A stretch of 64,000 nt of DNA. It comes from an uncultured Gammaproteobacteria bacterium (lineage in GTDB: Bacteria; Patescibacteriota; Patescibacteriia; UBA1558; 2-01-FULL-52-15). The stretch covers positions 316,659 through 380,658 of the forward strand of contig CAYOCJ010000002.1 of assembly GCA_964402565.1 (NCBI GenBank), read 5' to 3'. How positions within the stretch are numbered: the first letter of the stretch is position 1; each line of letters begins with the position of its first letter. The translations under genes and the position numbers were made by a program. Below the pieces are notes generated by a model that saw nothing but the letters and a program-made list of their open reading frames with translations, was not told where the DNA came from and searched no databases. Shown here piece after piece: positions 32,355 through 64,000 of this stretch.

Positions 32355-32355
32355 C

Positions 32356-33000: not shown

Positions 33001-33001
33001 C

Positions 33002-36059: not shown

Positions 36060-36068
36060 GAGACAGTC

Positions 36069-36311: not shown

Positions 36312-36366
36312 CGATCAAAGCCGCCTGGGAGTACAGAAACCTTTCACCTGCCTCAAGGAGGGCACA

Positions 36367-36726: not shown

Positions 36727-36976
36727 ACTCATCGTTCATTGCATCAATCGATCCGCGAGGATCGCGTCATCCTGAAATGGATGGGAACCCGCTGGTACGC
36801 CAGTCGATAAGGGTTCCTTTTTATTTTTAATACCATTGACTTTTTTAACTCTTTTTGGTACTTTTCGCTGTCTTCTTTTGTCCATTAACATCGTGTTTTG
36901 AGAAACAACTGAAAGGGGGTGTTACAGTTAATTTCGGCGCCGGTATGGTAGTTTTTCCACGAGCGGAGAAAAAGAT

Positions 36977-37234: not shown

Positions 37235-37298
37235 TTCCCACATGCTATTCCGGCATGTGGACAGCAACTAGCATCGAGAAAACAGAAGGAGTTGGATC

Positions 37299-38090
37299 TT
37301 GGACGACAACAACGAAATCCGAAGGCAGAAGTTGGCCGCCATCTTCAGATGGGGGCTGGGTCTTGTCGGTGCTGCGATCATCTCGCCTGTCGTTTTTTTG
37401 GCGGTGAAAGGCATCGTCGGGCTTGCGCTGGCAGTCGGCATCGGTTTCGCGGTCATTCAACTCGCGCCGGTCGTTGCGATGAAGCTCGCCAATTGGCGTA
37501 TGAAGCTCATCATCGACGAAGCCGAGAAGAATCCGATCGAGACCCTGCGCAACGAAACGCTCGACGCTGCCAAAGCTATCGACAGCAAAGACCAAGAGCT
37601 CGAAGACTGGGATACCGAGCTTCGGACATACGACGACGAACTCGTCAGCATCAAGCGGGATTATCCGGATGAGGCTGCCTCTTTCGAGCGCGTCAGCGAG
37701 GAGATGCATACTGGTCTGACGCAGGCTCGTGAGGAACAACAGCGTGCCCGTTGGGATCTCGAAGAAGCGAAGCGAACCGTCGACAAGATGGAGCGTCTCT
37801 ACAAAATGGCGCTCGCCGCACAACGGGTCAAGAGCTTCTCGAAGACCGCAGAAGAGGCGGTCATGGCTGACATCAGGCAGAAGGCAGCCATGGATTCTGT
37901 GCGCACCAATCTGAACCGGTCGCTTTCGCAGCTCAACACTGCGATGGCGAAACGGGCTGCCCGCCCCGCATTGACGGTTGCAGGAATGGGCCGGCAAGCG
38001 CTTGGCGCTGGTCGTCCCGCTACGATCGACATGTCCACTGATGCGAATCCCGCGAAGGTTCCGGTTCCGCGCGTTCGCGATAAGGAGTGA
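37299..38090 (+). CDS. membrane-anchored coiled-coil protein (island gene L), TTG start
   Basis: gaaggagttggatc-TTG. Two N-terminal TM helices, then a charged helical region. Confidence 0.55.
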   Translation: MDDNNEIRRQKLAAIFRWGLGLVGAAIISPVVFLAVKGIVGLALAVGIGFAVIQLAPVVAMKLANWRMKLIIDEAEKNPIETLRNETLDAAKAIDSKDQELEDWDTELRTYDDELVSIKRDYPDEAASFERVSEEMHTGLTQAREEQQRARWDLEEAKRTVDKMERLYKMALAAQRVKSFSKTAEEAVMADIRQKAAMDSVRTNLNRSLSQLNTAMAKRAARPALTVAGMGRQALGAGRPATIDMSTDANPAKVPVPRVRDKE

Positions 38091-38092
38091 AC

Positions 38093-38227
38093 GTGGGAAA
38101 CAAAAAGTATCGCATCGGCATCACGTTGCTCCTGCTCCTCATCCTGTTCCTCTGTTACGTCTACATCCAGAGCAATTCGCAGTCGTCCGATCCTCAGCAA
38201 GACGAACAAGGCATTCGGCTCCACTGA
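38093..38227 (+). CDS. possible 44-aa hydrophobic micro-protein (not in the ORF track)
   Basis: GTG 5 nt after the AAGGAG that overlaps the stop of gene L. Reads VGNKKYRIGITLLLLLILFLCYVYIQ..., a single TM. Confidence 0.3.
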   Translation: MGNKKYRIGITLLLLLILFLCYVYIQSNSQSSDPQQDEQGIRLH

Positions 38228-38258
38228 GCTGATCACACTGAACAAGGAGACCAACGAA

Positions 38259-39203
38259 ATGAACCTGAGCAAGTCCATCAATCGCATCATGTTCGCCCTG
38301 GCGCTGGTCTGCGTCTCGACGCAGCTCTTCGCGCAGACCCCGTTCAAGGTTGCGTCCAACTCGTCGAGCGGCACGTACGACAGGATGCTCGGCGAGATCA
38401 TTGCCGTCTGCAACAGCGACGAGCTGGAGATCGTGAGCGCTGACGTGAAGGGCGGGGCTGTCGGCAACCTGGACGCGCTCTACAACAACAAGGTGAACGC
38501 CGCGTTCATGCATTCCGACGTGTTCATGTCGAGTGCACAGGCCGACCCGAATTACAACCGATTCCAGACCTTGGTCGCGCTCTATCCCGAGCCGATCCAC
38601 GTGTTGGCGCTGAAGGTATCGAAGACCACGGAGAACGGCGCGCTTCACTGGGGGAAGGCTGCCTTCGGCAGTCTTGCGGAGACCAAGGGCTACAAGGTCG
38701 GTGCAGCAGGTGGCGGTGTCGTGACCGCCAGAATCTTGCAAGGGCAAGGTGAAGGCGGTTTCAGCGTCGTGCCATACAATGACGGCAATGAAGTCATTGC
38801 CGCGCTCGACAAGGGCGAGATCGCTGCGGCGATTTTCGTTGGAGCAGCTCCGCTGCCGAACCTGGAAAAACTGGATAAGCAGAAGTACAAGCTCATCCCG
38901 ATCGGCGCAACGATCGAGAACAAGGTCCAGGGCGTGTATCGTCCGGCCTCGGTGAATTACCCGGGCCTGACAAGCGGCCCGCTGCACACACTCGCGCCCA
39001 TGGCCACGCTCATGACCAAGAAGTACACCACGCCGGCCATGATCGACATGCAGCGCAAGTTCAGGGATTGCTTCAATACCCACCTGGGTGAGCTGAAGGA
39101 CGGCCATTCGCCGAACTGGGAATTCGTCGAGGCCGGCGATCACGGCGTACTCACCTGGTACGAGATCCCGCCTGCAGGTCCTGCGGCTCCCAAGAAGAAG
39201 TAA
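38259..39203 (+). CDS. periplasmic solute-binding protein (TAXI-TRAP / PBP2-like fold), secreted (island gene M)
   Basis: Signal peptide MNLSKSINRIMFALALVCVSTQLFAQ. G-rich binding-protein pattern (GAAGGGVVTARILQG...). No transporter partner nearby. Confidence 0.5.
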   Translation: MNLSKSINRIMFALALVCVSTQLFAQTPFKVASNSSSGTYDRMLGEIIAVCNSDELEIVSADVKGGAVGNLDALYNNKVNAAFMHSDVFMSSAQADPNYNRFQTLVALYPEPIHVLALKVSKTTENGALHWGKAAFGSLAETKGYKVGAAGGGVVTARILQGQGEGGFSVVPYNDGNEVIAALDKGEIAAAIFVGAAPLPNLEKLDKQKYKLIPIGATIENKVQGVYRPASVNYPGLTSGPLHTLAPMATLMTKKYTTPAMIDMQRKFRDCFNTHLGELKDGHSPNWEFVEAGDHGVLTWYEIPPAGPAAPKKK

Positions 39204-39257
39204 GTTCCGCGTTTTCTCAATAACACTGTCTAAAAAGGACTGAGCAGACCTGCTGCT

Positions 39258-39294
39258 CCCCGCCATGTCGCATGACCTGGCGGGTTCTTTTTTT
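39258..39294 (+). terminator. rho-independent terminator closing the island operon
   Basis: cccgcca...tggcggg followed by ttctttttttac. Confidence 0.7.
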
Positions 39295-39357
39295 ACTTGG
39301 CTAATTTCATTCCTTACTATATACTAGTCGCGTGAACCTAAGTATTAAAAGGTAACT

Positions 39358-39732
39358 ATGCTTTCAACATCAGTGATATTTGCTACCGCGCCGACGACAG
39401 ATGTCGCCCGCGCCAAAGAGTTCTATACAGAAAAAGTCGGTCTCAAAGTAATGCATGAAGATGAAGCCGGAGTGGCTCTCGAGGCGGGGAGCGGGTCAAG
39501 TATTTATTTGTATAAGCGTGCTCCGTCAAAGGCTGACCATACAGTCGCTTCATTCATGGTGTCCGACATTGACTCAGAAGTGAACGAGCTTCGTTCAAAG
39601 GGCGTGAAGTTTGAAGATTACAATATGCCCGGCCTCACCACCGAAAATGGCATCGCTACCTGGGGCAAGGACAAAGCAGCTTGGTTCAAAGATCCGGATA
39701 ACAATATCATCGGATTGTTTCAGAAAGGGTAA
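39358..39732 (+). CDS. VOC-family (glyoxalase/bleomycin-resistance fold) protein
   Basis: 124 aa, betaalphabetabetabeta pattern, a WFKDPDNNIIGL-type C-terminus. Confidence 0.75.
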   Translation: MLSTSVIFATAPTTDVARAKEFYTEKVGLKVMHEDEAGVALEAGSGSSIYLYKRAPSKADHTVASFMVSDIDSEVNELRSKGVKFEDYNMPGLTTENGIATWGKDKAAWFKDPDNNIIGLFQKG

Positions 39733-39756
39733 GCATTCTTTGCATGGTTTAAAAAA

Positions 39757-39783
39757 ACGCCGGACAGATATCCGGCGTTTTTG
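39757..39783. terminator. bidirectional rho-independent terminator
   Basis: aaaaaaa-cgccgga-cagata-tccggcg-ttttt, lying between convergent genes. Confidence 0.7.
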
Positions 39784-39804
39784 ATGTGACTAGAGACGCA
39801 TCAA

Positions 39805-40407
39805 TTAAACAAGCGAACCAGTTTTGACTTCTCCTGCACGGCTGTAGTAGGCAATGATAACGCCGGCAGGGGAAACTTTTGAATCGATCAGCTTGTAGGC
39901 CGCAGGCATGGTTCCTTCGGCAAATAAGCGTTTCCCTGATCCCAAAGTCACTGGAAAAATCTTTAACCACAATTCATCGATCAAGTCGTTTTGAAGCAAG
40001 GTTTGTATGAAGTTGCCGCTGCCGTATACTTGTAAGTCGCGGCCATCTGCTGCCTGTAGCTGTTTGATCTGGCCGACAATGTCTCCGGTAAGGACCGTGG
40101 TGTTTTCCCACGATGGCTCGAATTGGCTATGCGAAGCAACGTATTTATGAGCATTATTGAACAGATTACCGATATCGTTCGGGTGGTGCGGCCAGTAAGC
40201 TGCAAAAATAGTATATGTTTTTTTGCCGAGCAATAGATCAAATGGTTTGCTCATTTCATCGGCAACCGCCTTGCCGCCGAACTCATCCATATAGGGAAAT
40301 GTCCAGCCCCCGAATGTGAAGTTTCCCGACTTGTCTTCTTCGGGGCCTCCGGGCGCTTGCAGTATGCCATCAAGCGAGATCATGCTGAGGACTATGATTT
40401 TACGCAT
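39805..40407 (-). CDS. dihydrofolate-reductase-like (RibD C-terminal domain) family protein
   Basis: MRKIIVLSMISLDGI...GKKTY...YGSGNFIQTLLQNDLIDELWLKIFPVTLGSGKRLF matches the RibD_C/YwjB pattern. Confidence 0.8.
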   Translation of the reverse strand: MRKIIVLSMISLDGILQAPGGPEEDKSGNFTFGGWTFPYMDEFGGKAVADEMSKPFDLLLGKKTYTIFAAYWPHHPNDIGNLFNNAHKYVASHSQFEPSWENTTVLTGDIVGQIKQLQAADGRDLQVYGSGNFIQTLLQNDLIDELWLKIFPVTLGSGKRLFAEGTMPAAYKLIDSKVSPAGVIIAYYSRAGEVKTGSLV

Positions 40408-46574: not shown

Positions 46575-46823
46575 GCGATGTTCTCCTTGTGATAGGAATG
46601 GATGTGCCCGAATACCCAAGCAATTTGGGTTCCAGGTTAACAGCGCATAATATAGCTTTTCTAGGAAAAGTCAACTCTATATGAATCCTAACTTCACTGT
46701 TGTATTCAATAAACATTGACTTTTCGGTACTTTTTTGGTACGGTCGAAAGTCTTTTTGATGTTCATTGACAACCGTCTGTGCGGTTGTCTCCAACCATTC
46801 TGGACACCCTGAGGAGGGAGATA

Positions 46824-49250
46824 ATGCGTACAGCAAAGGTACTAAAGCCTTGGCGACATCAACGCCAAGCACAGCTTGCCATCACAGTAGCACGTGAGTC
46901 AGGCAAGCACGCCGGCCTCATGGTCATGGCAACGGGCTTAGGAAAAAATCTCACGGCAGCACTCGAGTATGAGAAGTTCAGAAGGTCAATGCTCCGTCGT
47001 GGCAAGCGAAGCCGATTGCTCTTCCTTGCACACCAGTCCCACATGCTCGATCAGGCGCGAGAAACTTACGAAATGCGCTTAGGTCGCAGGATCAGCTGCG
47101 GGATGTTTAACGATGTCTTCAAGGAGACAAAGGCAGACGCAGTTTTCGCAACATTCCAGAGCATGGATAAAGTGCTTTTCGGAAAGAAAGGAAAAAAGCG
47201 TCGACCCTTCGGAAGACATGGATTCGACTACGTCATCATCGATGAGTCGCATCACAGCCATGCACACACCTACCGACGGGTCATTCGCTACTTCAAGCCG
47301 CGTTTCACGTTGGCTATGACCGCGACACCTGACAGAGCAGATCTTCAGGACATACGCGATCTCTACGGCCCTGAGGTGTACTCACTCCCTCTCGAGGAAG
47401 GTCTTGCGCGAGGTTTGCTCGCGCCTGTGGACTATCGCCTCGTAACGGATGGATTGCACAAGCTAAGCATTCTCGACACACCGATCGGAAGATTGAGCGT
47501 CAAACGTTTGAACAAGACACTCTTTATTCCAAGGCGTGACGCCGAGATTGCAAAGATCATCCTCCAGCATGCACGGCGTCAGCCTGATGCACGTATGATG
47601 ATCTTCTGTCCTTCGATCAAGTATTGCACCCGTCTCGAACGACACTTACCGAATGCGGTTGCAATTCACTCGAGACTCACTGACAAGGAACAAGCCGATC
47701 GTCAGGCGAAGTTTCGGACAGGCGACTACACAACCGTTTTGACGGTGGACAAGTTCAACGAAGGGATTGATATCCCTGAGGCGAACATCATCGTCTTCCT
47801 TCGCTCCACAGCATCACGCAGGATTTTCCTGCAACAGCTCGGCCGCGGGCTTCGTAAGCTTCGTGGCAAGAGAAACGTCCTCGTCCTAGATTTCGCTGCA
47901 AACTGTGAGCGACTTCAAATGGTGAATACTCTCTGGCGTTCTGTCGACAAAATTAAGCGACAAAGCGCTGGGAAAACCAAGGACCGAGCTGTTTCAGTGG
48001 ACATCGGAAAGGTGAAGTTCTCGCATGTCGCGCAACGGATTCTCGATGTCTTGGGTCGCATCCAAGAAGGGTATACTCGAGAAGTGATCATTGCTCAGCT
48101 CAGAAGCCTTGGAAAACACCTCGATAGGACCCCAATGACAGACGATATCCGAGAGGCGTCTAAAAAAGGTTTGTGCGCAAATCCGACTACGATCTTACGA
48201 CATTTCGGCACCCTGCATGCTGCACTCAAGGCTGCTGGGTTCAGGCCAACACGAGGTTGGGGTGCGACCGAAGATGAGGTCAAGCTCCAAATCAAAGCAG
48301 TCGCTAAAGCACTTGGGCATACACCCACGATCGAAGAGTTGCGAGCCGCTTGGAGGAAAGGCGACATTGTTCACGAAGGCGTCATTCGACGCATCTTCGG
48401 AACTGTCACCGCTGCTTTCGAAGCTGTGGGCCTTGTTACTCGCAAGCCTAAGCACTACACCACAAGCGAGATCAAGAAACAGCTCAAGGAGATTCAAAGA
48501 ACAACTGGAAAAGCACCAACAAGAGCGGAAATAACGAATCGTCACGCAGCCGGTAAAGGTCCGAGTCTTCACATCGTGATCAAGCGCTTCGGCTCTTTCT
48601 CGAAAGCTCTTCTTGCGATAGGCACCCTCGCGACTAACATGATAAAGCCGGTCAAGGGGGGGAAAGCCCATCGTAAAGGCGAGGCCAGCAACAAGTTTGT
48701 GCTTGGCTGCCTCAAACGACTCGAGCGGAGCCTTGGTAGAATCCCTTCGAGAAAGGACGTTGATGTTGCTGCGCGAAAGGGCTTGTGTCTGAGTAGCTCT
48801 ACCTACGCTAAGCGATTCGGGTCTCTTACAGCGGCAAAAAAAGCTGCTGGGATCGAGATTGTTGTTGAGGTGAAGCGAACACGAAAACAACACATTCGCG
48901 ATTTGAAGCGACTCGCAAAGAAACTGGGTAGAACACCTTTCGTAGAGGATGTAAAAGCTGCCTACACGAGACACGAGTGTGGCAGCACATCCATGCTGTA
49001 TAAAGTCTTCGGGTCATTCAACAATGCGCTTGAAGAGGCTGGCCTCACCCCAAACCGAATCCACGAGTACACAGATCAAAGGCTCATCCATTCACTGCAG
49101 GAGCTTGGTCGCAAACTGGGGAGGCCACCGTATAGCATCGATGTAAACCGAGCAAGCAAAGAAAGCGGAGCCTTCCCGGGGCTAGGGCCATTCCTGAAAG
49201 CGTTCGGAACCTTCAGAAAAGCACGGGAGGCGGCGGGCTTCAAGGCCTGA
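46824..49250 (+). CDS. SF2 helicase (ResIII/DEAD-like: motif I GLGKN, motif II DESHH) with C-terminal array of about six homing-endonuclease-associated repeats
   Basis: RBS gaggagggagata-ATG. VMATGLGKN, VIIDESHHSHA, MTATPDR, and a helicase C-domain (QQLGRGLR). The C-terminal roughly 420 aa is made of about 50-aa repeats of the form L..LG+.PT..E....+GL......++FGS...AL..AG. Confidence 0.8.
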   Translation: MRTAKVLKPWRHQRQAQLAITVARESGKHAGLMVMATGLGKNLTAALEYEKFRRSMLRRGKRSRLLFLAHQSHMLDQARETYEMRLGRRISCGMFNDVFKETKADAVFATFQSMDKVLFGKKGKKRRPFGRHGFDYVIIDESHHSHAHTYRRVIRYFKPRFTLAMTATPDRADLQDIRDLYGPEVYSLPLEEGLARGLLAPVDYRLVTDGLHKLSILDTPIGRLSVKRLNKTLFIPRRDAEIAKIILQHARRQPDARMMIFCPSIKYCTRLERHLPNAVAIHSRLTDKEQADRQAKFRTGDYTTVLTVDKFNEGIDIPEANIIVFLRSTASRRIFLQQLGRGLRKLRGKRNVLVLDFAANCERLQMVNTLWRSVDKIKRQSAGKTKDRAVSVDIGKVKFSHVAQRILDVLGRIQEGYTREVIIAQLRSLGKHLDRTPMTDDIREASKKGLCANPTTILRHFGTLHAALKAAGFRPTRGWGATEDEVKLQIKAVAKALGHTPTIEELRAAWRKGDIVHEGVIRRIFGTVTAAFEAVGLVTRKPKHYTTSEIKKQLKEIQRTTGKAPTRAEITNRHAAGKGPSLHIVIKRFGSFSKALLAIGTLATNMIKPVKGGKAHRKGEASNKFVLGCLKRLERSLGRIPSRKDVDVAARKGLCLSSSTYAKRFGSLTAAKKAAGIEIVVEVKRTRKQHIRDLKRLAKKLGRTPFVEDVKAAYTRHECGSTSMLYKVFGSFNNALEEAGLTPNRIHEYTDQRLIHSLQELGRKLGRPPYSIDVNRASKESGAFPGLGPFLKAFGTFRKAREAAGFKA

Positions 49251-50188: not shown

Positions 50189-50330
50189 CTACATTATGGC
50201 GACTGGATTTTTTCATGGTTCCGCCCATTCGGCAAGCTCAGGGCGTCGCAAAAAAGATAAAACCGCCAGAAGAAATCTGACGGTTTTATCTTGGCTCCGC
50301 GAGTCGGATTCCGCTTCGCTAGACCCTTTC
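50189..50330. repeat. two partial direct copies of the tRNA-Asn 3' end plus flank (att-like scars)
   Basis: 50193-50217 (ttatggcgactggattttttcatgg) is identical to 50461-50485. 50293-50312 (tggctccgcgagtcggattc) is identical to the tRNA 3' end at 50484-50503. 50218-50233 is a degenerate copy of the same segment. Confidence 0.7.
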
Positions 50331-50482
50331 TGATTTCCCCCGACCCCCATCTCGGACACCTTCGATTTCCGACGCTCGTTACACTCGCTGCCTTCCACCC
50401 ACGGGGGAAATCCGGTTCGAATCCTCTGAAAATCCAAATCAATGAAAAAATCCACTCACCTTATGGCGACTGGATTTTTTCA

Positions 50483-50557
50483 TGGCTCCGCGAGTCGGAT
50501 TCGAACCGACGACCCATTGGTTAACAGCCAATTGCTCTACCGCTGAGCTATCGCGGA
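50483..50557 (-). tRNA. tRNA-Asn (GTT)
   Basis: Reverse complement reads TCCGCGA-TA-GCTC-AGCGGTA-GAGC-A-ATTGG-CTGTTAA-CCAAT-GGGTC-GTCGG-TTCGAAT-CCGAC-TCGCGGA-G-CCA. Confidence 0.88.
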
Positions 50558-54872: not shown

Positions 54873-55286
54873 ATGAAAACCTTTTTGATCGACGCAGTAT
54901 ACTGTTTTATTGTCGAGAGCAAAGGCGGTTTTAGTATTTTTATTGAAATGTATGAGTTACTTGAGAGTTATCCGAACCGAAAAATTTTACTCACTGGCGC
55001 GCGCGATGAGGATATCGAGAGATATGGATTAGACAAGGTGCCGTATGAATATTTTACGTTGAAATCCGATCCCAAAAAATCAAACCCCGAATACTATACG
55101 ACGATGCTCAGGCATTTCCATATGAAACCGGATGATGTCGTGTATGTCGAGCATAATCCCGATGCCGTTGAGAGCGCACGTTCTGTGGGGATTGAAACGT
55201 ATCTCTATGATCGCGAGAAAAAAGATCTGGATGCTTTGGAAAAGTTTTTATCCTCTTTGAAAGATGAGACAGTGAACGTGCTCTAG
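54873..55286 (+). CDS. small hypothetical protein (possibly HAD-like)
   Basis: Start at MKTFLID. 137 aa. Confidence 0.4.
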   Translation: MKTFLIDAVYCFIVESKGGFSIFIEMYELLESYPNRKILLTGARDEDIERYGLDKVPYEYFTLKSDPKKSNPEYYTTMLRHFHMKPDDVVYVEHNPDAVESARSVGIETYLYDREKKDLDALEKFLSSLKDETVNVL

Positions 55287-55300: not shown

Positions 55301-55345
55301 TAAAAAGAAAACGGCCCCGGTCCACACGTTCGTGTGGCCGGGGCC
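55301..55345 (-). terminator. palindromic terminator, copy 1 of a 45-bp repeat
   Basis: taaaaagaaaacggccccggtccacacgTTcgtgtggccggggcc. Read on the minus strand this is a GC hairpin followed by a U-tract, after the DUF1360 gene. Confidence 0.65.
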
Positions 55346-55363
55346 GGGGATGAGGAAGGAAAA

Positions 55364-55684
55364 TTACTCCATCGTCTTGAAGGCTCGGTAGATGAGCCCT
55401 GACCAGAACGATGAAAGCGTCACGATCGCAAAGACCGCGACGATGTAATCGATGAATCGGGATTGTTCGAAGAGAACTGGACGGTAGAGGATCACTGCTA
55501 GTAGTGAGAGCCAGTGGCTCGTACAATACGGGCAGTTCACGAGTTTACCGAGCCAGGTGCTGATGCGCTCGATCAGCGAGCGGAATCCCTCGAAGATCGG
55601 AGATTTCGCTGTGGTCATCGAGATCGAGGACACAGACAGGGAAAGGACTAGTATCTTGAGGAAGTGCATGAAAGTTTCGTTCAT
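55364..55684 (-). CDS. DUF1360-like small membrane protein
   Basis: RBS gaaggagtaagg-ATG. CPYCTSHW motif and 3 TM helices. Confidence 0.55.
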   Translation of the reverse strand: MNETFMHFLKILVLSLSVSSISMTTAKSPIFEGFRSLIERISTWLGKLVNCPYCTSHWLSLLAVILYRPVLFEQSRFIDYIVAVFAIVTLSSFWSGLIYRAFKTME

Positions 55685-55697
55685 CCTTACTCCTTCA

Positions 55698-55889
55698 TCA
55701 GCGGAAACAGAAGCAGCCCCTGAGGGGTCTGTCTGCCTTGTCCTTGGTATCGTTCAGGACGGCGTCGATGGATTCGAGGGCTTGATCGATGGATGGCAGC
55801 GAAGTATCGAGGCTTGTCGGATCAAGCACCGACTCTTTCCCGCTTCCCGCAGGACGTTGGGTTTTCTTTTTCTTGCGTTCCTGTTCCAT
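55698..55889 (-). CDS. Pup/UBact-like small protein (prokaryotic ubiquitin-like), atypical C-terminus
   Basis: 63 aa. N-terminal MEQERKKKK matches Pup MAQEQTKR. L-E-S-I-D-A-V-L-N-D-T matches the Pup L-D-E-I-D-D-V-L-E-E-N helix. It ends ...RPLRGCFCFR rather than GGQ/GGE. Confidence 0.45.
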   Translation of the reverse strand: MEQERKKKKTQRPAGSGKESVLDPTSLDTSLPSIDQALESIDAVLNDTKDKADRPLRGCFCFR

Positions 55890-55898
55890 GTCGTCCTC

Positions 55899-57752
55899 TT
55901 ATACCGCCGCGAGATGGTGTTTCTCGATCTTCACCACGCTGTTGCGGAAGTCACGCATGTACTCGGTCAGCTCATCCTGGTGGTTGAGATCGAGATTTTG
56001 TCCATAGACGTTGGCGACTGCATGATCAAGGTCGTGCCTCGAGATACCGCTTTGCTTTCGGTTCTTGATGTCACGACGGATGGCAAGCGATGTTGCTTGG
56101 TCGACGATGCCTGCGATCATACCTCCGTTGACGATGTGCCGGAGGCTAAACAGTTTCTGGCTGACGACTCCTTTGTTCAGCACCGAAACATCGTAAAGGG
56201 CGAGATCCTCGGCGTAGAGCTTTTCAGCGGCGTAGGCAGCCATGTTCGACCGCGTGTAGCCGTTGTCGAAAGGAACATCACGGAGATGCAGCGAGAAGAT
56301 GTCAGTTGCGCTCCGGACATCCGGCCGCGTAACCCTGATCTTGCGGTCGATGCGACCATCACGAACGATCGCCGGATCCAAAACGTCAGAACGGTTCGTG
56401 GCGAGTATTACGATCGCACCGCTATCGTCGAGTCCGTCCATTTCAGCGAGGAACATCGGAACGATGGTTGACTCCATGTCAGAGCTGACGCCGGAACCGC
56501 GTTTTCGCAGAATGGATTCAGCCTCGTCGATAAAGATCACCGCCGGATAACCGTTGTCCAGGCGATGTTTACGTGCACGCGCGAAGAGCTGCCGGATCGC
56601 AGCCTCGGAGTCGCCGACCCAGCGGGTCAGGATCTCAGGACCTTTGACGTAGAGAAAGCCGCTCGGGGCGCTGTTGCCATCGCCATGGAGCCGTGACATC
56701 GCCGTCGCCGTTGCTTTCGCAAGCATTGTTTTGCCGCAGCCCGGAGGTCCGTAGAGCAGAACGCCCTTGATCGGCCGCTTGTTGTAGTGGCGATATAGGC
56801 TTCGCTCACGCAGCGGCAACTCTATAGCCTCGATCATTTCCGTTTTGGCGGTTTCGAGTCCGCCGATGTCATCCCACGAAACGTCGGATAACTCCGTCAG
56901 CGTGAAAGATTCTTCCTCACGGTCGAGTCTCTGGATGATGATCGAAGCAGATGCATCGAGGATTACGCGGTCGCCTTTCTCGAGGTGAAAGTGCTGACCA
57001 CATAAAACGACACGTTTTTGATCTTGATGTTCTACTTCGCACAAGTCGTTGTCGAGCCGTTGTACCACCGTCGAGATGTCGCCGTTGGTGAAGCCTTCCA
57101 CGACTTTGACGATCTGGCGAGACTCCGGCGACAGCTTGACGGTGTCACCTGCGCGGACGTCCTCGTCTTTGGGTAGCATCACCTCCATCAACGTACCGTC
57201 GAAGTAGATCACAGCCGTTGACGGAACCGGGAGACCGTCGACAAGATCCAAGTCAATGGGGCCATAACGACTGTCACAATTGTAAGAATTTTCGTAGCCG
57301 TCAGCGAAACGAACTACCGCTGTCAGGCTACCTTCTTGTTCTCGGAAGATCGTACCGATCCCAGCGTTCTGATAGTAGTACTCGCTATTTTTCGAGATAC
57401 GAACACGAGTGCCTTTTGTAAAAGCACTTAAGTCCGGATCGGCCGGCATGATCCTGATCACTGTTGCCATGGGCATCGGCAGAGCCGTGAGCTGCTTCAG
57501 GCGAGAGTTCTGCTCCAGCAGCTTTTCTTTTGCCAGGACCAGAGCTTCACGAAGCCTGAAGGCATCCTTGCCTTCTTTTTCGTCAACTTCCTGATATCTT
57601 GCAAGCTTGTCTTCGAGCTCGGCAACGTACGCACGAGACGGAAGAGTGTCGTCTTGAACGATCGTAGCTGGAGCTTCGTGCTCTTGTCGATGATGTTCAC
57701 CTGTCTTCTGTTGAGGATGGTCTGCTTTGGGGGTTTTTTTGTTGGACCACAT
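55899..57752 (-). CDS. ARC/Mpa-type proteasome-associated AAA ATPase
   Basis: N-terminal coiled coil, OB-fold region, then DIGGLETAKTEMIEAIELPLRERSLY...GVLLYGPPGCGKTMLAKA (Walker A), VIFIDEAES (Walker B), ATNRSDVLDPAIVRDGRIDRKI (second region of homology). Confidence 0.85.
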   Translation of the reverse strand: MWSNKKTPKADHPQQKTGEHHRQEHEAPATIVQDDTLPSRAYVAELEDKLARYQEVDEKEGKDAFRLREALVLAKEKLLEQNSRLKQLTALPMPMATVIRIMPADPDLSAFTKGTRVRISKNSEYYYQNAGIGTIFREQEGSLTAVVRFADGYENSYNCDSRYGPIDLDLVDGLPVPSTAVIYFDGTLMEVMLPKDEDVRAGDTVKLSPESRQIVKVVEGFTNGDISTVVQRLDNDLCEVEHQDQKRVVLCGQHFHLEKGDRVILDASASIIIQRLDREEESFTLTELSDVSWDDIGGLETAKTEMIEAIELPLRERSLYRHYNKRPIKGVLLYGPPGCGKTMLAKATATAMSRLHGDGNSAPSGFLYVKGPEILTRWVGDSEAAIRQLFARARKHRLDNGYPAVIFIDEAESILRKRGSGVSSDMESTIVPMFLAEMDGLDDSGAIVILATNRSDVLDPAIVRDGRIDRKIRVTRPDVRSATDIFSLHLRDVPFDNGYTRSNMAAYAAEKLYAEDLALYDVSVLNKGVVSQKLFSLRHIVNGGMIAGIVDQATSLAIRRDIKNRKQSGISRHDLDHAVANVYGQNLDLNHQDELTEYMRDFRNSVVKIEKHHLAAV

Positions 57753-57784
57753 GCCTCAGTCTCCTTGTGACCTGTTTGTTGCGT

Positions 57785-58111
57785 TTACTGCAAACGTACG
57801 TCGACAGCTCGTTCCACCTTTGTTCCGTTCTCGTCATCGACCGTTCCGATAAGGAACGTCACGTTGAGACCGCGCGCGAGTGCGATGTTTTCGTGCACAG
57901 AAGCAACGATAAACTTGCGCCCGTCGTAGGTACTCGTGGTGTCTTTGACTCGCACTTTCCAAAGAGTGGCTCGAGATGCAGGGTCGGCCCCAACGACGTA
58001 TCCTTGATGCCTTTTTTCGATCATGGGCTTCTCCTGTTGACTATAGACCTTCTGACCTTTATACATCCAACGACTTATCGTCGTAATTGGGACAATGTGA
58101 GTAATTTCCAT
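57785..58111 (-). CDS. hypothetical protein, first gene of the ARC cassette
   Basis: 108-aa ORF on the same strand as ARC, 33 nt upstream of it. Confidence 0.45.
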   Translation of the reverse strand: MEITHIVPITTISRWMYKGQKVYSQQEKPMIEKRHQGYVVGADPASRATLWKVRVKDTTSTYDGRKFIVASVHENIALARGLNVTFLIGTVDDENGTKVERAVDVRLQ

Positions 58112-58185
58112 AATTTTTAAGGGACTGATAAAACATAAAGATATAGTATATTAAATGATTTTTGTCAATCCAATTCGTTAATCGA

Positions 58186-58231
58186 TAAAAAAGAAAACGG
58201 CCCCGGTCCACACGAACGTGTGGCCGGGGCC
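58186..58231 (-). terminator. palindromic terminator, copy 2 of the 45-bp repeat (centre AA instead of TT)
   Basis: taaaaaagaaaacggccccggtccacacgAAcgtgtggccggggcc, minus-strand terminator after the serpin-like gene. Confidence 0.65.
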
Positions 58232-58236
58232 GCAAG

Positions 58237-59118
58237 TTATGCGAGGCCCGAAGGCTTCTTCCAGTCGTCGTGACCGATGTGGCCGACAAACAACGGCTTG
58301 CTGAAGCCATGCCTGGTGAAGCAGACGAGGAAAGGCTTGTCGATGATGTAGACCGTCTTCGGCTTCGAGGCGCCCAGACGCATAATGCCGATCGCAGCAG
58401 CGCTCTCGGCTCGCGCGCCGACCTCGTTCATCCGAAGCTTGGTTTGCTGCTTCGCCTGCGAGACGATTGCAGGCCGACCGTCAACGCCCTTGGTGTTCAG
58501 TCCGCGGAGCCACGAGATGTCGACCTCTTGGTTCAGATCGACCATGGGGAAAATGACGCCTTCGTGCTCATCGTCGATATCGTCCGGTTCGAGCAGCCTG
58601 TCTGCCAGGCTGATGAGGTCGAAATCCTTCGGAGGATCATCCACGATGGACAGGTGGACCATGTCTCCGGACTTGGTTTTGATCATGATGACCGGATGCC
58701 GGTGCTTCGCCACGCGATAGATGATGTGGCCCTTGTCCATGCGCACGGCAGGGTAGGGCGTATCGTCCGCGGTCACGATCTGAGTTTCTGATCCTTTCGC
58801 CTCCCATTCCACGAGCAGGTCGAGTACGCTCGCGACGCCGAACTCGTTCGGGTCGAAGCGATCGAGCTGGATGCGGAAGCCTTTTTTCCTTAGGAAGGCG
58901 TTGATCTCGTCAGCGCTTTTCGAAGCGAGGCTCTCGATCTCCGGCAGCCTGCCGATCTCGTCGCGGTTGCGCCTGAAGAATTCGTCAAGGAATCTCGACT
59001 GCATGCGGTTCTTCGGGGACCAGAGCCTGTGAGCTCCCATGCCAGGCATTTCTTCCGCTGCGACCAGGGCCGCTACGATCGGATAGGTGACTACGGTTTG
59101 GCTTTCGGTTGCGATCAC
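58237..59118 (-). CDS. serpin-like protein (C-terminal serpin signature; possibly N-terminally truncated)
   Basis: EVGARAESAAAIGIM (hinge, compare GTEAAAAT), DKPFLVCF (compare DHPFLFLI), PLFVGHIGH (compare ILFMGRV.NP). Only 293 aa versus about 380-400 for full serpins. Confidence 0.4.
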   Translation of the reverse strand: MIATESQTVVTYPIVAALVAAEEMPGMGAHRLWSPKNRMQSRFLDEFFRRNRDEIGRLPEIESLASKSADEINAFLRKKGFRIQLDRFDPNEFGVASVLDLLVEWEAKGSETQIVTADDTPYPAVRMDKGHIIYRVAKHRHPVIMIKTKSGDMVHLSIVDDPPKDFDLISLADRLLEPDDIDDEHEGVIFPMVDLNQEVDISWLRGLNTKGVDGRPAIVSQAKQQTKLRMNEVGARAESAAAIGIMRLGASKPKTVYIIDKPFLVCFTRHGFSKPLFVGHIGHDDWKKPSGLA

Positions 59119-59257
59119 GCCTTCTCCTTTTTGCCTTTTGGCAGTTAAAGTGCGACTTCTTGCTGCGATGCAAGAAACCGCAAATATTTGCAGGAAATGA
59201 AGTAAATGTCAATTTTTTTATCCACGTTTAATAAAAAAGCATTTGATTTTAATGTTA

Positions 59258-59286
59258 TTGACAATGTTGCCTGAAAAGTGTATAAG
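59258..59286 (+). promoter_or_regulatory. sigma70 promoter (TTGACA-17-TATAAG) for the PspA-like gene
   Basis: ttgaca at 59258-59263, tataag at 59281-59286. Confidence 0.5.
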
Positions 59287-59340
59287 TCTTTGATCATCGT
59301 CCAATCACGGATGATGAGTTCCAATACACATGAGGTGCCC

Positions 59341-60018
59341 ATGCCGCTCCTGAAACGGTTCTACGACCTGCTTCACGACAAGCTCAGCGCCGGCGTCGAC
59401 AAGGCTCAGGATCCCGAAGACAAGATCCGTGCCGTGATGCACAGCATCACGGACCAGGCGCCTGCGGTGCGCCAGGCCACAGCCGAGCCCATCGCTCGCT
59501 ACACCGATCTGCTTTCCCGCAGCGAAGCCATGAAGGTGAAGGTCACTGCGCTCGAGGCCAAGGCGCGCGGAGCCATCGGCAAAAACGACGAGGCCGCACG
59601 CGCCTACGCGACGCAGCTTGTCGACGCCAGGGCCGAAGCGGCCAGGATCGACGCACAGCTCGCGACCGCGAAGGAACGGGCGGACCAAGCCCGCCAGCAC
59701 TACGCCGACTGGAAGGAGAAGGTCGACGCGATGCACAGCCAGGCCATGGATGCTCTCGGCGAAGCCGAACGCGCCAAGGCGCAGAGGGTCTACAACGAGA
59801 CCATGCGCACGCTCGACAGCACAAGCCTCGACAGCAGCTTCGCGGAAGCGACGAACGCCGTCGCCATGGAGGCGCGCAAGGCCGACGCCGAGGCAACGCT
59901 CGACGAGGATCCGACAGCGGCAGCGGTCAAGGCATACGACAACCAGCAGCGTACCGCTGCGGTGGACGAGGTTCTGAAGAGCCTCGCCGCATCGCAAGAT
60001 GCCGCAACCCCGGCCTAA
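59341..60018 (+). CDS. PspA/IM30 (Vipp1/LiaH) family protein
   Basis: LLKRFYDLLHDKLSAGVDKAQDPEDKIRAVMHSITDQ matches the PspA N-terminal pattern (...lLdkaEDPeK.l.q...em...). The remainder is coiled coil. The start is trimmed to MPLLK. Confidence 0.7.
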   Translation: MPLLKRFYDLLHDKLSAGVDKAQDPEDKIRAVMHSITDQAPAVRQATAEPIARYTDLLSRSEAMKVKVTALEAKARGAIGKNDEAARAYATQLVDARAEAARIDAQLATAKERADQARQHYADWKEKVDAMHSQAMDALGEAERAKAQRVYNETMRTLDSTSLDSSFAEATNAVAMEARKADAEATLDEDPTAAAVKAYDNQQRTAAVDEVLKSLAASQDAATPA

Positions 60019-60196
60019 CAAAGGCCGGTCTACTATCGGTGCAGGTGTTCCCCTCGGAATGCCTGCACCTTTTCTTTATAATAGTGGAAACGAAATGGTT
60101 GACTTTTTTATCAATATTTGTTAGAAGTATCGGTTGCTCTTTAACACGCTATTCGAGAAAATATTGAAAAAAACGGAGGTTCTTCTCGTGATACAA

Positions 60197-61177
60197 ATGA
60201 TCCTCGGTAAGCCTGTCGACGAATTCGTTTATCGGTATGTCCCGGGCTTGTGGGTGATCACCCCGTATTACAATCCAATGGGCTACCAGACCCGGCGCCG
60301 CAACTACGAGATCTTTTCTCGCGTCTTGCGAAACTCCGGCATTCCGCTCATCACGGTCGAATGCGTATTCGGCGATCAGAAGTTCGATCTTCCTGAGTCA
60401 CCGGACGTGATCCGGCTGAAGAGCGAGTCCATGCTGTGGCAGAAAGAGCGTCTGCTCAATCTCGCCATCTCATGGCTGCCGCCATCCTGCACCGCAGTTG
60501 CGTGGCTTGATTGCGATCTGATGTTTACGAACCCGAACTGGGCTCAGGAGACTGTGGCGCGTCTGCACGATGCAGCGGTTGTTCAAGTCTTCGAGACTTG
60601 TAACCGCTTGCCGCAGCAGTATGCGGATCCCTCTGCACATGGAGACATCTGCACTTCCTTCGGCAGCGTGCTGTCACAGGATCCTTCACAGTACGCTACA
60701 GGCAATTTCGCGAATCACGGTCACACCGGATACGGCTGGGCTGCGCGAAGGGACATCCTCGACAAACACGGGCTCTACGAAGCAGCAATAGCCGGATCGG
60801 CGGACCATTATATGGCCCATGCTGCGGTCGGTGATTTCGATTCAGTGTGCATCACTCGCCACATGAGCAGAAACCCTACGCTCAAGCGGCATTACCGCGA
60901 CTGGGCCGAGTCGTTCTATGAGTCGGTCGGCGGCAAGCTGCAGGCAGTGTCAGGCACTGTGCTGCATCTGTGGCATGGAGAGCTCGCGGATCGAAAATAT
61001 TCGCTACGCCATCTCGAACTCGAAGCTCTGCAGTTCAATCCGTACACTGATCTGGTTTCGCATCCCGGCAAACCGCTGGAGCTGAAGCCCAGTAGTCGAA
61101 CTGAGGAATTGATTCGCTGGTTCGGCATGTATTTCGCGAGCCGGCGAGAAGACGGACCATTAACCGCAACGATATGA
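60197..61177 (+). CDS. hypothetical protein (possibly a nucleotide-sugar transferase-like fold)
   Basis: RBS acggagg then GTG/ATG. VITPYYNP...DCD pattern is only weakly GT-A-like. Confidence 0.5.
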   Translation: MILGKPVDEFVYRYVPGLWVITPYYNPMGYQTRRRNYEIFSRVLRNSGIPLITVECVFGDQKFDLPESPDVIRLKSESMLWQKERLLNLAISWLPPSCTAVAWLDCDLMFTNPNWAQETVARLHDAAVVQVFETCNRLPQQYADPSAHGDICTSFGSVLSQDPSQYATGNFANHGHTGYGWAARRDILDKHGLYEAAIAGSADHYMAHAAVGDFDSVCITRHMSRNPTLKRHYRDWAESFYESVGGKLQAVSGTVLHLWHGELADRKYSLRHLELEALQFNPYTDLVSHPGKPLELKPSSRTEELIRWFGMYFASRREDGPLTATI

Positions 61178-61187
61178 CGGAGGACCC

Positions 61188-62327
61188 ATGGCTGACAAAC
61201 GGGTGTTTCTGACCGAGCTCGACTCTCACGCAGACAGCTTGCGACGTGCATTCGAACAGATGGGCCAGACGATCCAGGATAACGGTCGCGATCTCGACGC
61301 GCTGCGAAAAACTCGCAGCAAGCGGATCGGCGAGTACATCGACGAGATTCTGCCGGACCTCAGTCCGGCCTCGATCACTCAGCTGAACGCGAAGCTTCCA
61401 GGCGCTGCCACGACGGAGCAAGTCGTGTCGCTCATCGCAGGAATGAAGCAGACCTACCAAGGTCAGGTCGACCGCCTGCTCACGACCTACGACCCCAAGT
61501 CCTACGAAGGAACCAAGATGGGCCTGGAGGTCAAACTCCAGGAAGCCGAGAGAGACCTCGACTATGTGAAAGCTCCGCTCGACGGCCTCAAGGCCATCCC
61601 GGATCTCTCGCGTCTCATGCAGAGCGGTTATGGCACCGATGCCTACCCGCATGGCTTCCTCAACAGCCAGTACTACCGCGACTGGAAAGCAGCCGACGCG
61701 GCTGTCGAGCGGGCTGGAAACGTCAGGAACTGGGTCGAGCTCGCTGCACGGTATCGTACCGCAGCCGGCAACGTGATCACCGTCGGAGCGCGAGTCGCAT
61801 CAGTTCGCAAGCAGATCGAAACGCTGACTTCCCTGCACGACGAATACGAGAACGCGAAGGCTGCGCTGGACCAGGTTCCGCAGAAAGCGCGGGAGACGAT
61901 CTCAGTGAAGGTCAGGTCGAAGCTCGATGCTTTGGATCCGATGCCTGACTGGGCATCCGACATCGCGAACTTGGACAAGAAGATCGCGGCCAAGGTGGAC
62001 GAGACTTCGAAGCTTCAGGAAACCCAAGGCAAGATGTCCGAACAGATCGCGAGCATGCAGAAGATCAAAGCGCAGGCAACGCGCAGCAGGGATAACCAAG
62101 TCCCTGACAAGTACCTGCAGGCGATTCGCCAGACCAGGCCCTTCGGCGCATCCGGAGGCAGCTCGCACACCGTGTACGTGAACGACAATAGCTGGCTGCT
62201 GCCGATGATCCTGTACACGGAGATGGGAAATCACTTTTCCAGCGACCGTGCCTACCGCGACGGGCGTGAGGATCAGCGCCAAGCTGACTACGCATACGCG
62301 CACGCCGATCGCAGCGGCAACTCCTAA
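61188..62327 (+). CDS. hypothetical helical protein, 379 aa
   Basis: RBS gacggaggaccc-ATG. Confidence 0.55.
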   Translation: MADKRVFLTELDSHADSLRRAFEQMGQTIQDNGRDLDALRKTRSKRIGEYIDEILPDLSPASITQLNAKLPGAATTEQVVSLIAGMKQTYQGQVDRLLTTYDPKSYEGTKMGLEVKLQEAERDLDYVKAPLDGLKAIPDLSRLMQSGYGTDAYPHGFLNSQYYRDWKAADAAVERAGNVRNWVELAARYRTAAGNVITVGARVASVRKQIETLTSLHDEYENAKAALDQVPQKARETISVKVRSKLDALDPMPDWASDIANLDKKIAAKVDETSKLQETQGKMSEQIASMQKIKAQATRSRDNQVPDKYLQAIRQTRPFGASGGSSHTVYVNDNSWLLPMILYTEMGNHFSSDRAYRDGREDQRQADYAYAHADRSGNS

Positions 62328-62366
62328 ACCTACAACGTTTCTATTTCCATTTGGAGGAAGAGACCG

Positions 62367-62918
62367 ATGACGTACAAGACGTTCGTGCGCGTGGTCTGGG
62401 TTCTGGGGATCGTGCTCGTCATTTCGATGGGCTATTGCGTGAAGAACTGTGCGAGCAGCCATGCTTCGGCCGAAGCCCAGGTTCAGACCGGCACGGTGGT
62501 GACGCAGGCGTATATCCCGCCGGCTCCTGTCCGCGCACCCGACCCTGAACCTCCGGTTCGCCACGTCGCTCCGGCGGCTGCCTCGGGGCCGCTCACCGCT
62601 TCTCGCATGTACTCGACCGATGAGCTTGCCGCCAAGATCGAGGGCTTCCTCTCGGCTCACGGCAAGAACCGCGGACGCCAGCAATGGGTGAATTGCATGC
62701 CGGAGGAGCCTTTCCGCGCGACGGCAGTCCGTTTCAAAGAAGCGGACGCGGTCAAATGGTCGAATGACCCTGACCAGTGGTCGCAGGTCCGCCTCGACCT
62801 CGATCGCGACGGTCGCGACGATGAGAAGTGGCTCCTGAAAAACGGCCACACCTACAAGCGAGAGGTGCTCGGGCCTGACGGCAAGAGCGTCGTCAAGACC
62901 GAATACGTCAAGAGGTAG
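62367..62918 (+). CDS. membrane-anchored hypothetical protein with Pro-rich linker
   Basis: RBS ggaggaagagaccg-ATG. One N-terminal TM. Confidence 0.55.
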   Translation: MTYKTFVRVVWVLGIVLVISMGYCVKNCASSHASAEAQVQTGTVVTQAYIPPAPVRAPDPEPPVRHVAPAAASGPLTASRMYSTDELAAKIEGFLSAHGKNRGRQQWVNCMPEEPFRATAVRFKEADAVKWSNDPDQWSQVRLDLDRDGRDDEKWLLKNGHTYKREVLGPDGKSVVKTEYVKR

Positions 62919-62953
62919 GAGAAGCGTCTGAGTAATTTCTCGAATTGTAAGCT

Positions 62954-62992
62954 GTGCCCCGAGCGTTTCACGCCCGGGGCACTTTTCTTTTA
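62954..62992 (+). terminator. rho-independent terminator
   Basis: gtgccccg...cggggcac followed by ttttctttta. Confidence 0.7.
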
Positions 62993-63077
62993 TCAAAAAT
63001 ATCCTTGTCACAGATATCGTTGCGTATTACAGTATAAGCATACAGAACACTATTTTTAAATAATCTAAAGCACACAT

Positions 63078-63248
63078 ATGAAAAACCGGCATGGCGGCGA
63101 AGCAGTATATGGACTTGGTCTCATCGGAGCATTGGTTTACTTTATCGGCCATGCGCAATCGTTCTGGGGTGGCTTGCTTGGTTTTCTTGAAGCCTTAGTC
63201 TGGCCGGCAATACTCGTGTACAAATTGTTAGAAATGTTTTGGAAATAG
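63078..63248 (+). CDS. possible 56-aa hydrophobic micro-protein (not in the ORF track)
   Basis: ATG at 63078 to TAG at 63246. Reads MKNRHGGEAVYGLGLIGALVYFIGHAQSFWGGLLGFLEALVWPAILVYKLLEMFWK, i.e. 2 TM helices. Preceded by a weak RBS. Confidence 0.3.
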   Translation: MKNRHGGEAVYGLGLIGALVYFIGHAQSFWGGLLGFLEALVWPAILVYKLLEMFWK

Positions 63249-63260
63249 AAAGCAGTTTTT

Positions 63261-63295
63261 GAAAAAGAAAAAGGCCGTATCGGGAGATACGGCCT
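63261..63295 (-). terminator. rho-independent terminator for the antiporter gene
   Basis: aggccgtatc-ggga-gatacggcct, with a T-tract on the minus strand. Confidence 0.6.
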
Positions 63296-63319
63296 CATGA
63301 ATCATAATGCAGTGTTGCT

Positions 63320-64000
63320 TCAGACCAACTGGAGTTTCCGTGCCAACCAGGGCGTGGCCAGAGGTTGGACGATGAGTGTGAGCAGGATCACCCACATGCC
63401 GATCGGTACGAGTGCCTCGGTACCGGGAATAGCGCGACTCGCGATGGTGACGAGAAGTACTGCCGGGATTGCACCGGTTTCTCTGACCCAGGCAAGGAAG
63501 GCGAGCTGTTGCCAGCTAAGGCGTTCCTTGGTGAGCTTCGTTGTGAAGACCGAAAGCATGACCAACACCGTCAGCGGTCGTACTACGAAAACGAAAACGA
63601 GTGCCGAGATGATGCCGATGAGAGCGTATTGCCCGAGCGAGCCAAGATCTACGAGCGAGCCAAGCAGGAGGAAGATCGTGGGCTTCGCCAGGCCGTCCAC
63701 CACATGTTCTTCGAGGAAGTGACCCGTTTTCTCGAGGTGATTCGAAAGCTCGAAGAGAAGGCCTGCGATGAAAGCCGCGAGATAGCCGCTGCCTCCGAAG
63801 AGCAGTGCTGCCACGAAGGCGAAGAGCGGGATAAACAGGAAGAAAATCCCGTCAGCACCGGCTTCGAATCCGTGATGCAGCTTGCGCCAGCTGAAGAGCC
63901 TGAGCAGCAGCCAGCCGACGATACCGGCGAGGGCACCGTAGAATGTTTGCTCGACGAGAATCAGCGCGCTCCCGACTGAGAACAGTGAAGCGAATCCGCT
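63320..64000 (-). CDS. cation:proton antiporter (CPA1/NhaP-like), C-terminal part; the gene continues beyond the window
   Basis: Continuous minus-strand frame to the window edge (...FFLFIPLFAFVAALLFGGSGYLAAFIAGLLFE...), the typical CPA TM core. Confidence 0.75.
   Translation of the reverse strand, partial: SGFASLFSVGSALILVEQTFYGALAGIVGWLLLRLFSWRKLHHGFEAGADGIFFLFIPLFAFVAALLFGGSGYLAAFIAGLLFELSNHLEKTGHFLEEHVVDGLAKPTIFLLLGSLVDLGSLGQYALIGIISALVFVFVVRPLTVLVMLSVFTTKLTKERLSWQQLAFLAWVRETGAIPAVLLVTIASRAIPGTEALVPIGMWVILLTLIVQPLATPWLARKLQLV

Follow-up and report, generated by a model that had tools for sequence, protein, structure and literature searches.

We analysed a stretch of 64,000 nucleotides (nt; the window) from a member of the Patescibacteriota (Genome Taxonomy Database (GTDB) lineage 2-01-FULL-52-15), comprising positions 316,659 to 380,658 of the forward strand of contig CAYOCJ010000002.1 in assembly GCA_964402565.1. 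The window carries chromosomal genes of the candidate phyla radiation (CPR, or Patescibacteria), encoding ProRS, DnaG, RpoD, pyruvate kinase and a CarS-like enzyme. Near its right end, two near-identical hairpin repeats bracket a 2.9-kb operon of four genes on the minus strand, and these repeats and the unit between them are the subject of this study. An independent short-read contig (Logan, k = 31; hereafter L001), 10,264 nt long and present in two samples, shares 8,684 nt of identical sequence with the window and runs on past the window end for 1,580 nt, bringing the sequence read here to 65.6 kb.

Copy 1 of the repeat occupies 55301–55346 (46 nt; TAAAAAGAAAACGGCCCCGGTCCACACGTTCGTGTGGCCGGGGCCG), and copy 2, at 58186–58232 (47 nt), differs from it only by AA for TT in the centre of the loop and by a run of six rather than five A residues. 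The two hairpins around the operon are where the original prediction placed them. On folding of the minus-strand RNA, both copies adopt a stem of 15–16 base pairs with a single bulged A and a 4-nt loop, with energies of −33.1 kcal/mol for copy 1 and −34.6 kcal/mol for copy 2 (z about −5.8). Copy 1 has the structure CGGCCCCGGCCACAC-GAAC-GUGUGG(A)CCGGGGCCG followed by UUUUCUUUUU; copy 2 has the same stem and tail, the loop GUUC and one extra residue in the U run. The repeat is thus palindromic as described, except that pairing is not perfect: in each copy a single base bulges out of the same arm. A scan with the 33-nt stem-loop pattern, allowing up to three mismatches, hit no place in the window other than these two and gave no match in 100 shuffles.

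Both copies follow closely on the ends of genes. Copy 2 begins 4 nt past the TAA of a monocistronic gene for a 293-amino-acid (aa) protein with a weak serpin C-terminal match (58237–59118, minus strand; GC 0.588, and 0.776 at third codon positions (GC3)). Copy 1 begins 17 nt past the TAA of the DUF1360 gene that closes the four-gene operon, and it faces a converging HAD-like gene on the plus strand (54873–55286; GC 0.41) that belongs to the low-GC left flank and stops 26 nt before the hairpin. Because a stable hairpin and a U-tract follow closely on stop codons, copies 1 and 2 are, by their anatomy, predicted intrinsic (Rho-independent) terminators of the minus strand. Each thus has the full anatomy of a terminator for the gene upstream of it, the role that the original prediction had given it.

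The operon itself is a discrete unit, as had been proposed: four open reading frames (ORFs) on the minus strand, with an AT-rich stretch containing a perfect −35 hexamer ahead of them. Gene 1 (57785–58111) is a 108-aa ORF for a small beta protein with the motifs RHxGYVVG, WKVRVKD and GLNVxF and no family match. Its homologues, which include the neighbours upstream of the AAA gene in three other loci (L006, L087 and L089; 53–61% identity), align from about residue 30, so the gene may start at 58024, an internal Met some 30 codons in. Gene 2 (55899–57752) encodes a 617-aa ARC/Mpa-like AAA+ ATPase (Pfam AAA, 9e-35; Prot_ATP_ID_OB_C) with its closest homologues, at no more than 52% identity, among CPR proteins. 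Its best NCBIfam model, TIGR03689 (pup_AAA), scores 357 bits, under the equivalog cutoff of 504.75; on profile scores, the product is predicted to be ARC-like and is not a called Mpa or ARC orthologue. Gene 4 (55364–55684) encodes a 106-aa DUF1360 membrane protein (Pfam PF07098, 1e-7) with a CPYC motif.

Gene 3 (55698–55889) had been read as a Pup- or UBact-like protein, an assignment for which the window protein offers no profile support. The 63-aa peptide is disordered, with a basic N terminus, an acidic helix (IDQALESIDAVL) and a C terminus ending in RPLRGCFCFR; it has no match in Pfam or NCBIfam, and it lacks the C-terminal GGQ or GGE that is the hallmark of Pup (PMC3511204). The homologue in L006 reaches TIGR03687 with E = 0.017 and 15 bits against a cutoff of 41. 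Four aligned homologues end in RCRC, GCGCRG or PCGCF, and most others carry paired cysteines at or near the C terminus (CFCFR, RCRC, GCGC, CGCW, WCGFC and WCTPCE across homologues). As far as motifs can tell, the peptide resembles Pup only in its acidic helix (DDxLxEIDxxL). Among the window ORFs of at least 140 aa, the set scanned for recombinase, Pup-ligase and proteasome families, there was no match to PafA, Dop, a Pup ligase or a proteasome family. PADLOC returned generic AAA matches only (IetA and TRIP13) and supported no known defence system.

Two further copies of the hairpin lie on the same strand about 1.1 and 1.5 kb past the end of the window, on L001. Copy 4 (L001 417–466, approximately 65,115–65,164; minus strand) begins 19 nt past the stop codon of a co-oriented gene and has a third loop variant, AAAC; copy 3 (L001 1–47, approximately 65,534–65,580; minus strand) has the loop GAAC. 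The two are 419 nt apart and bracket a single gene of 76 aa. L001 starts inside copy 3, runs unbroken through copy 2 (7349–7398, corresponding to approximately 58,186–58,232; minus strand) and ends inside copy 1 (10235–10264, approximately 55,317–55,346; minus strand). At least four copies therefore lie within 10.3 kb on one strand, and none occurs in the remaining 55 kb. All four have the U-rich tract UUUUCUUUUU(U) directly 3′ of the stem. The stem and the bulged base are constant in all of them, and variation is confined to the loop and the tail. Over about 51 nt, copies 1 and 2 agree at 46 of 52 positions and copies 3 and 4 at 48 of 51, with 41–42 of 51–52 identical between the pairs. The extended tail TTTT(T)CTTTTTCAAAAAATATAT is common to copies 3 and 4, and GGGGCCG followed by TTTTCTTTTT to copies 1 and 2.

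We next set these hairpins against the other candidate terminators of the region. Our scan for a hairpin followed by a T-run gave 44 candidates in 65.6 kb; outside the four-copy family every stem was unique, and the family hairpins were the most stable of all. The tail TTTTCTTTT(T) also follows unrelated stems at 34,690, 46,199, 62,983 and 63,272, and so characterizes the terminators of this genome in general. One of the unrelated stems belongs to the terminator of the Na+/H+ exchanger gene (63273–63296, minus strand); copy 3 shares its 18-nt tail, TTTTTCTTTTTCAAAAAA, exactly, and copy 4 has the same tail with one T fewer. A plus-strand terminator at 62954–62982 (GTGCCCCGAGCGTTTCACGCCCGGGGCAC then TTTTCTTTT) combines a GCCCCG/CGGGGC outer stem, one bulge and the family tail, and may be a diverged family member on the other strand.

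Searches of other sequence collections gave no further members. An exact-pattern scan of a genome contig collection that does not include the source genome gave no match, nor did a pattern scan of a viral contig collection, and DNA searches of phage and plasmid collections turned up nothing meaningful. At gathering thresholds, Rfam recognized only tRNAs, and the hairpin matches none of its families. Three metagenome matches to the pattern were rejected as coding palindromes in unrelated high-GC DNA, with neither the A/T run nor the outer stem. The original prediction had called for a search for further copies and had set its cassette against the possibility of a generic terminator widespread in the genome. 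The two more copies, which lie away from the cassette, go part of the way towards that alternative; a widespread distribution is not shown, as the other 55 kb of the window holds none. Within the sequence seen, the hairpin is a local four-copy family confined to the GC-rich block that begins at 55.3 kb, and it is not a generic terminator of the genome.

The operon is preceded by a candidate promoter at 58140–58168 (minus strand), in which TTGACA (58168–58163) is separated by a 17-nt spacer from TATATC (58145–58140), the best −10 match at that spacing; a consensus promoter scan called none there. The perfect −35 hexamer and its AT-rich setting had been foreseen, and it is their placement at 58157–58162 that needed correction. 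A TTGACA hexamer lies 30–50 nt downstream of each of copies 2, 3 and 4, but conservation between copies does not extend to the promoter part: the likeness amounts to about 25 nt of generic TTGAC plus a T-rich spacer. Among stretches of the form TTGAC(A/T)TTTTTATCAATAT..., the one at L001 80–104, ahead of the unit after copy 3, is 92% identical to one at 60099–60123 on the plus strand, ahead of a divergent operon, and looser relatives lie at 36836–36860 and 46716–46740.

Base composition places the family in a wider context. The window contains two GC-rich blocks, at 26000–40000 and at 55350–64000 (continuing to approximately 65,580 in L001), with GC of about 0.56–0.57 against about 0.48–0.49 elsewhere. 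Their genes are mostly hypothetical and include those for a second AAA protein, a DUF6638 protein, a mechanosensitive channel, PspA and the Na+/H+ exchanger. Both blocks look like acquired or accessory segments, and the hairpin family occurs only in the second, with no copy in the block at 26–40 kb. Gene by gene, GC3 is 0.46–0.55 in five genes left of copy 1, 0.55–0.71 in the four operon genes and 0.65–0.82 to the right of copy 2 as far as 65.4 kb, in all but one tiny ORF; the step in composition thus falls at copy 1 and not at copy 2. Total GC is 0.527 between copies 1 and 2 and 0.560 across 58233–65580. The description of the operon as a GC-rich cassette accordingly holds with respect to the left flank and fails with respect to the surroundings as a whole, since the right flank is richer still.

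The positions at which short-read contigs break coincide with the repeats. L005, the Logan contig that covers the left flank, also ends inside copy 1, and the breaks of L001 and L005 at copies 1 and 3 can be traced to a 33-nt core common to both copies in a k = 31 graph. The two ends of L001 (1–30 and 10235–10264) fall in this same core and overlap by 27 nt; the graph therefore fits either a purely chromosomal segment of 10.2 kb or an additional circular form. The breaks raise the question of whether the contig was mis-joined at the repeat, an error that would have created both the flanking arrangement and the change of composition at copy 1. The k = 31 contigs do not confirm the join between left flank and operon, and the GC3 step falls exactly there. 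Against such an artefact, ordinary reads of 100–150 nt, like larger k values, reach across a repeat of 33 nt, an independent contig found in two samples matches the window exactly at the copy 2 junction and over 8.7 kb of sequence, and a similar GC-rich block at 26–40 kb is embedded in the same contig with no repeat of this kind. We consider a mis-assembly highly improbable.

With moderate confidence, we read the hairpins as a local family of strong and almost identical intrinsic terminators, spread by short-patch recombination or reuse, each of which closes one of several minus-strand units within a GC-rich segment that looks accessory. The elements would terminate transcription and would be copies of common descent, the nearest copies being most alike and grouping as ((1,2),(3,4)). 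Their local spread could have occurred by short-patch recombination or gene conversion, or by reuse during gene gain, with no need for a dedicated recombinase. The 2.9-kb segment would then be an ordinary conserved operon that has a promoter region and a terminator of its own, and its hairpin-bounded look would come solely from the gene upstream of it, which closes with this terminator too. The proposal that the hairpin marks cassette boundaries survives in that copies do stand at the operon edges; it lacks specificity, as at least four copies end successive units and copies 3 and 4 flank a 76-aa gene. A local segmental duplication, also suggested as an origin, is contradicted by the similarity, which ends at the terminator itself.

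The inverted loop centre, which the original prediction took as the mark of a recombination or inversion site, can be accounted for within this reading. The loops GAAC and GUUC are exact reverse complements set between perfectly paired arms, and the outer bulge is not flipped, which rules out inversion of the whole hairpin. By our arithmetic, the chance that two independent substitutions in a 46-nt repeat both hit its central dinucleotide is 1/1035, and the chance that both change to the complementary base is 1/9. The joint chance of about 1e-4 makes a single event more plausible than independent substitutions. Minute inversions are known in chloroplast hairpins. Inversion of the loop alone, mostly of 4-nt and partly self-complementary loops, is a documented outcome of template switching (Monttinen and Loytynoja 2022, PMC8794818). 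Here, too, a 4-nt, partly self-complementary loop is replaced by its reverse complement and the perfectly paired adjacent stem is unchanged. The published cases, however, are ribosomal RNA and microRNA hairpins compared between species, whereas here paralogous terminator copies are compared. The TT/AA difference thus fits a one-step inversion of the 4-nt loop, which may have occurred by intrastrand template switching across the inner stem, and a recombination site is not needed to explain it. The AAAC loop of copy 4 is an ordinary point change, and the loop drifts. With only four nucleotides inverted, the bulge unflipped and a third variant present, nothing about the flipped centre calls for a recombination or inversion site.

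We then compared the hairpins with known mobile or recombinogenic elements, since they might instead belong to a dedicated hairpin system: a single-strand site like attC, like the repetitive extragenic palindromes (REPs) served by REP-associated tyrosine transposases (RAYTs), or like those of IS200/IS605 elements, or else an invertible loop switch. The resemblance to attC lies in an imperfect hairpin with a conserved extrahelical base, superficially like the attC bulges, placed 3′ of co-oriented units. However, neither R″ (RYYYAAC) nor R′ (GTTRRRY) cores occur within about 60–80 nt of any copy on either strand, the stem-loop of about 35 nt is far below attC size, a U-tract follows it, the units carry promoter-like sequences of their own, and no intI was found among the ORFs scanned. 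The resemblance to REPs is broader: the hairpins are extragenic, palindromic, about 35 nt long (within the 14–40 nt of REPs), alike from copy to copy and located at the 3′ ends of operons. REPs are thought to spread and homogenize by gene conversion (PMC12306157). In the criteria for REPs, including those of RepRanger, a T-rich tail separates terminators from REPs (PMC12306157), and such a tail is present in every copy here, which places the family in the terminator class. The copies also lack a GTAG/CGTC tag 5′ of the stem and are few and local in the sequence read.

Other features bear on such a system as well. The same scan of window ORFs of at least 140 aa found no match to tyrosine or serine recombinases, integrases, resolvases, transposases or the RAYT/TnpA (Y1) family. 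Nor do the flanks of the four copies share a direct repeat of the kind that would point to a miniature inverted-repeat transposable element. For a loop switch, the inversion affects the loop and not the bulge, and the copy 4 loop is a point change. A dedicated hairpin system is largely refuted for attC and REP, and overall we regard it as very unlikely. A different parallel is offered by DNA uptake sequences (DUS) and uptake signal sequences (USS), inverted pairs of which form terminators in Neisseria and Pasteurellaceae; work by Kingsford et al. from 2007 is said to describe these terminators. There, as here, many genes end in terminators with the same stem. Uptake sequences, however, occur about once per kb genome-wide, and the 55 kb adjacent to our family holds no copy.

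The operon between copies 1 and 2 is found well beyond this genome. The order of small protein, AAA ATPase, peptide with a C-terminal CxC and DUF1360 protein (55364–58111, minus strand, in the window) recurs at L006 3618–6359, L087 7708–10293 (also L088) and L089 7712–10600, and in part at L086 8001–10497, with ATPases that are 45–50% identical. Among the IMG/VR loci (L090–L109), nine contigs have the core of AAA gene, peptide and DUF1360 gene, and in many loci the AAA gene has a DUF1360 gene as its conserved partner downstream. Across loci, the small protein has about 85–100 aa and the peptide 60–90 aa. The neighbours of the operon differ in every relative locus. None of the relative loci, CPR or IMG/VR, has duplicated hairpins flanking the operon, and the downstream terminator of L006, the one that was read, has a different stem. 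The same gene order in distant loci with unrelated neighbours argues that the presumed cassette is a functional operon, conserved in evolution and either moved or kept as a whole. A literature search found no paper describing the four-gene module.

Several of these loci have features of their own. Four of the IMG/VR contigs (L090–L093; 152–533 kb) encode ATPase homologues of 39–44% identity, with an adjacent DUF1360 gene in L090, L091 and L093; these contigs, classified as viral, represent huge phages or else CPR genomes placed in the wrong class. In L087, the operon adjoins an island of restriction-modification, Fic and reverse-transcriptase genes next to a serine recombinase. Adjoining this recombinase and island is a 56-nt structured direct repeat (15228–15283 and 15542–15597; 98% identical) whose copies bracket or overlap a GIY-YIG endonuclease gene.

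A related species from the same sample series (GCA_964422585.1, contig CAYRBH010000004.1; also in SRR12313479) allowed a closer comparison. It is syntenic with window positions 1700–13600 at 70–79% nucleotide identity, and its ProRS is 86% identical in protein sequence. No hairpin copy was found in the 21 kb read around its ProRS gene. Although this relative is represented in the protein collection at least by its ProRS, the AAA protein finds nothing there above 52% identity, and the best homologue of a 366-aa protein of the left flank reaches 53%. We infer from these values that the region is probably variable and probably absent from the closest relative, with the caveat that metagenome-assembled genomes may be incomplete.

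The closest precedent for repeated terminators that move genes comes from T4-type phages, in which promoterEarly stem-loop (PeSL) elements mediate insertions and deletions and give rise to mini-circles by homologous recombination (Arbiol et al. 2010, PMC2839356; Comeau et al. 2014, PMC4122927). PeSLs are short, repeated intergenic terminator stem-loops beside sigma-70-like promoters, clustered in variable regions where they flank small or unknown genes (PMC2839356, PMC4122927). Our hairpins resemble them as short, repeated and clustered predicted terminators with promoter-like TTGACA stretches nearby, among small or unknown genes in a probably variable region. By analogy, direct copies would recombine, excise the intervening unit as a circle and allow its re-insertion at another copy, such that a unit arrives from terminator to terminator, as the original prediction had suggested; the mobile unit could be the four-gene operon, the 76-aa gene or the whole 10.2-kb block. 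Direct repeats do flank two discrete units, each followed by an AT-rich stretch containing TTGACA, and of all copies the two on either side of a unit resemble each other most, the outcome expected of a single crossover. The same operon also sits in unrelated contexts (the L087 island and the IMG/VR contigs), and so is mobile over evolutionary time, and both ends of L001 lie in the 33-nt core, compatible with a linear or a circular form.

Some of what favours such shuffling weighs directly against our preferred reading of reused terminators. The composition step coincides exactly with copy 1. Copies 1 and 3, with their identical 33-nt core, bracket the entire 10.2-kb GC-rich block seen. The region is probably missing from the closest relative. 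In addition, all four copies stand at the edges of possible gained modules, for which cassette gain by recombination fits equally well, and the copies were counted in about 66 kb of a genome that has a contig of 513 kb or more. On the other side, no empty site, recombinant junction or polymorphism was seen, and the unbroken passage of L001 through copies 2 and 4 indicates, weakly, that no abundant alternative junction exists there. Homology between copies extends over just 33–50 nt, the GC content of the operon is not distinct from that of the right flank, the promoter lies outside the conserved repeat, and four copies are known here compared with about 50 PeSLs per phage genome. We therefore treat PeSL-like shuffling as the main rival, a possible but rather unlikely explanation. 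The family also differs from PeSLs in its setting, a CPR chromosome, in conserving the terminator rather than the promoter and in that no recombination product was seen. That the hairpins are a cellular counterpart of phage PeSLs, each a portable 33–50-nt stretch of homology, with RecA-type recombination moving whole units as circles in a CPR chromosome, is a suggestion from analogy that we find more doubtful still.

Two other features of the window lie outside the hairpin-bearing block. An 823-aa helicase (46779–49250, plus strand; ResIII/Helicase_C) contains six units of the homing-endonuclease-associated HNH_repeat (Pfam E = 1e-60). Beside the tRNA-Asn gene (50483–50557), the interval 50191–50502 holds short repeats, both direct and inverted (34 nt at 94% and 28 nt at 93%), which may stem from duplication of a tRNA 3′ fragment or be what is left of an att site.

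What the family means depends on how its copies came to stand where they do. If they are only reused terminators, as we favour, they are ordinary repeated intergenic palindromes that also provide a natural illustration of hairpin loop inversion. The operon, with its ARC-like ATPase, CxC peptide and DUF1360 protein, represents a widespread uncharacterized module that may merit study in its own right. If recombination between copies does move whole units, it would offer the streamlined genomes of the CPR a route to gain and lose accessory operons without integrases and would extend a mechanism of T4-type phages to bacterial chromosomes.

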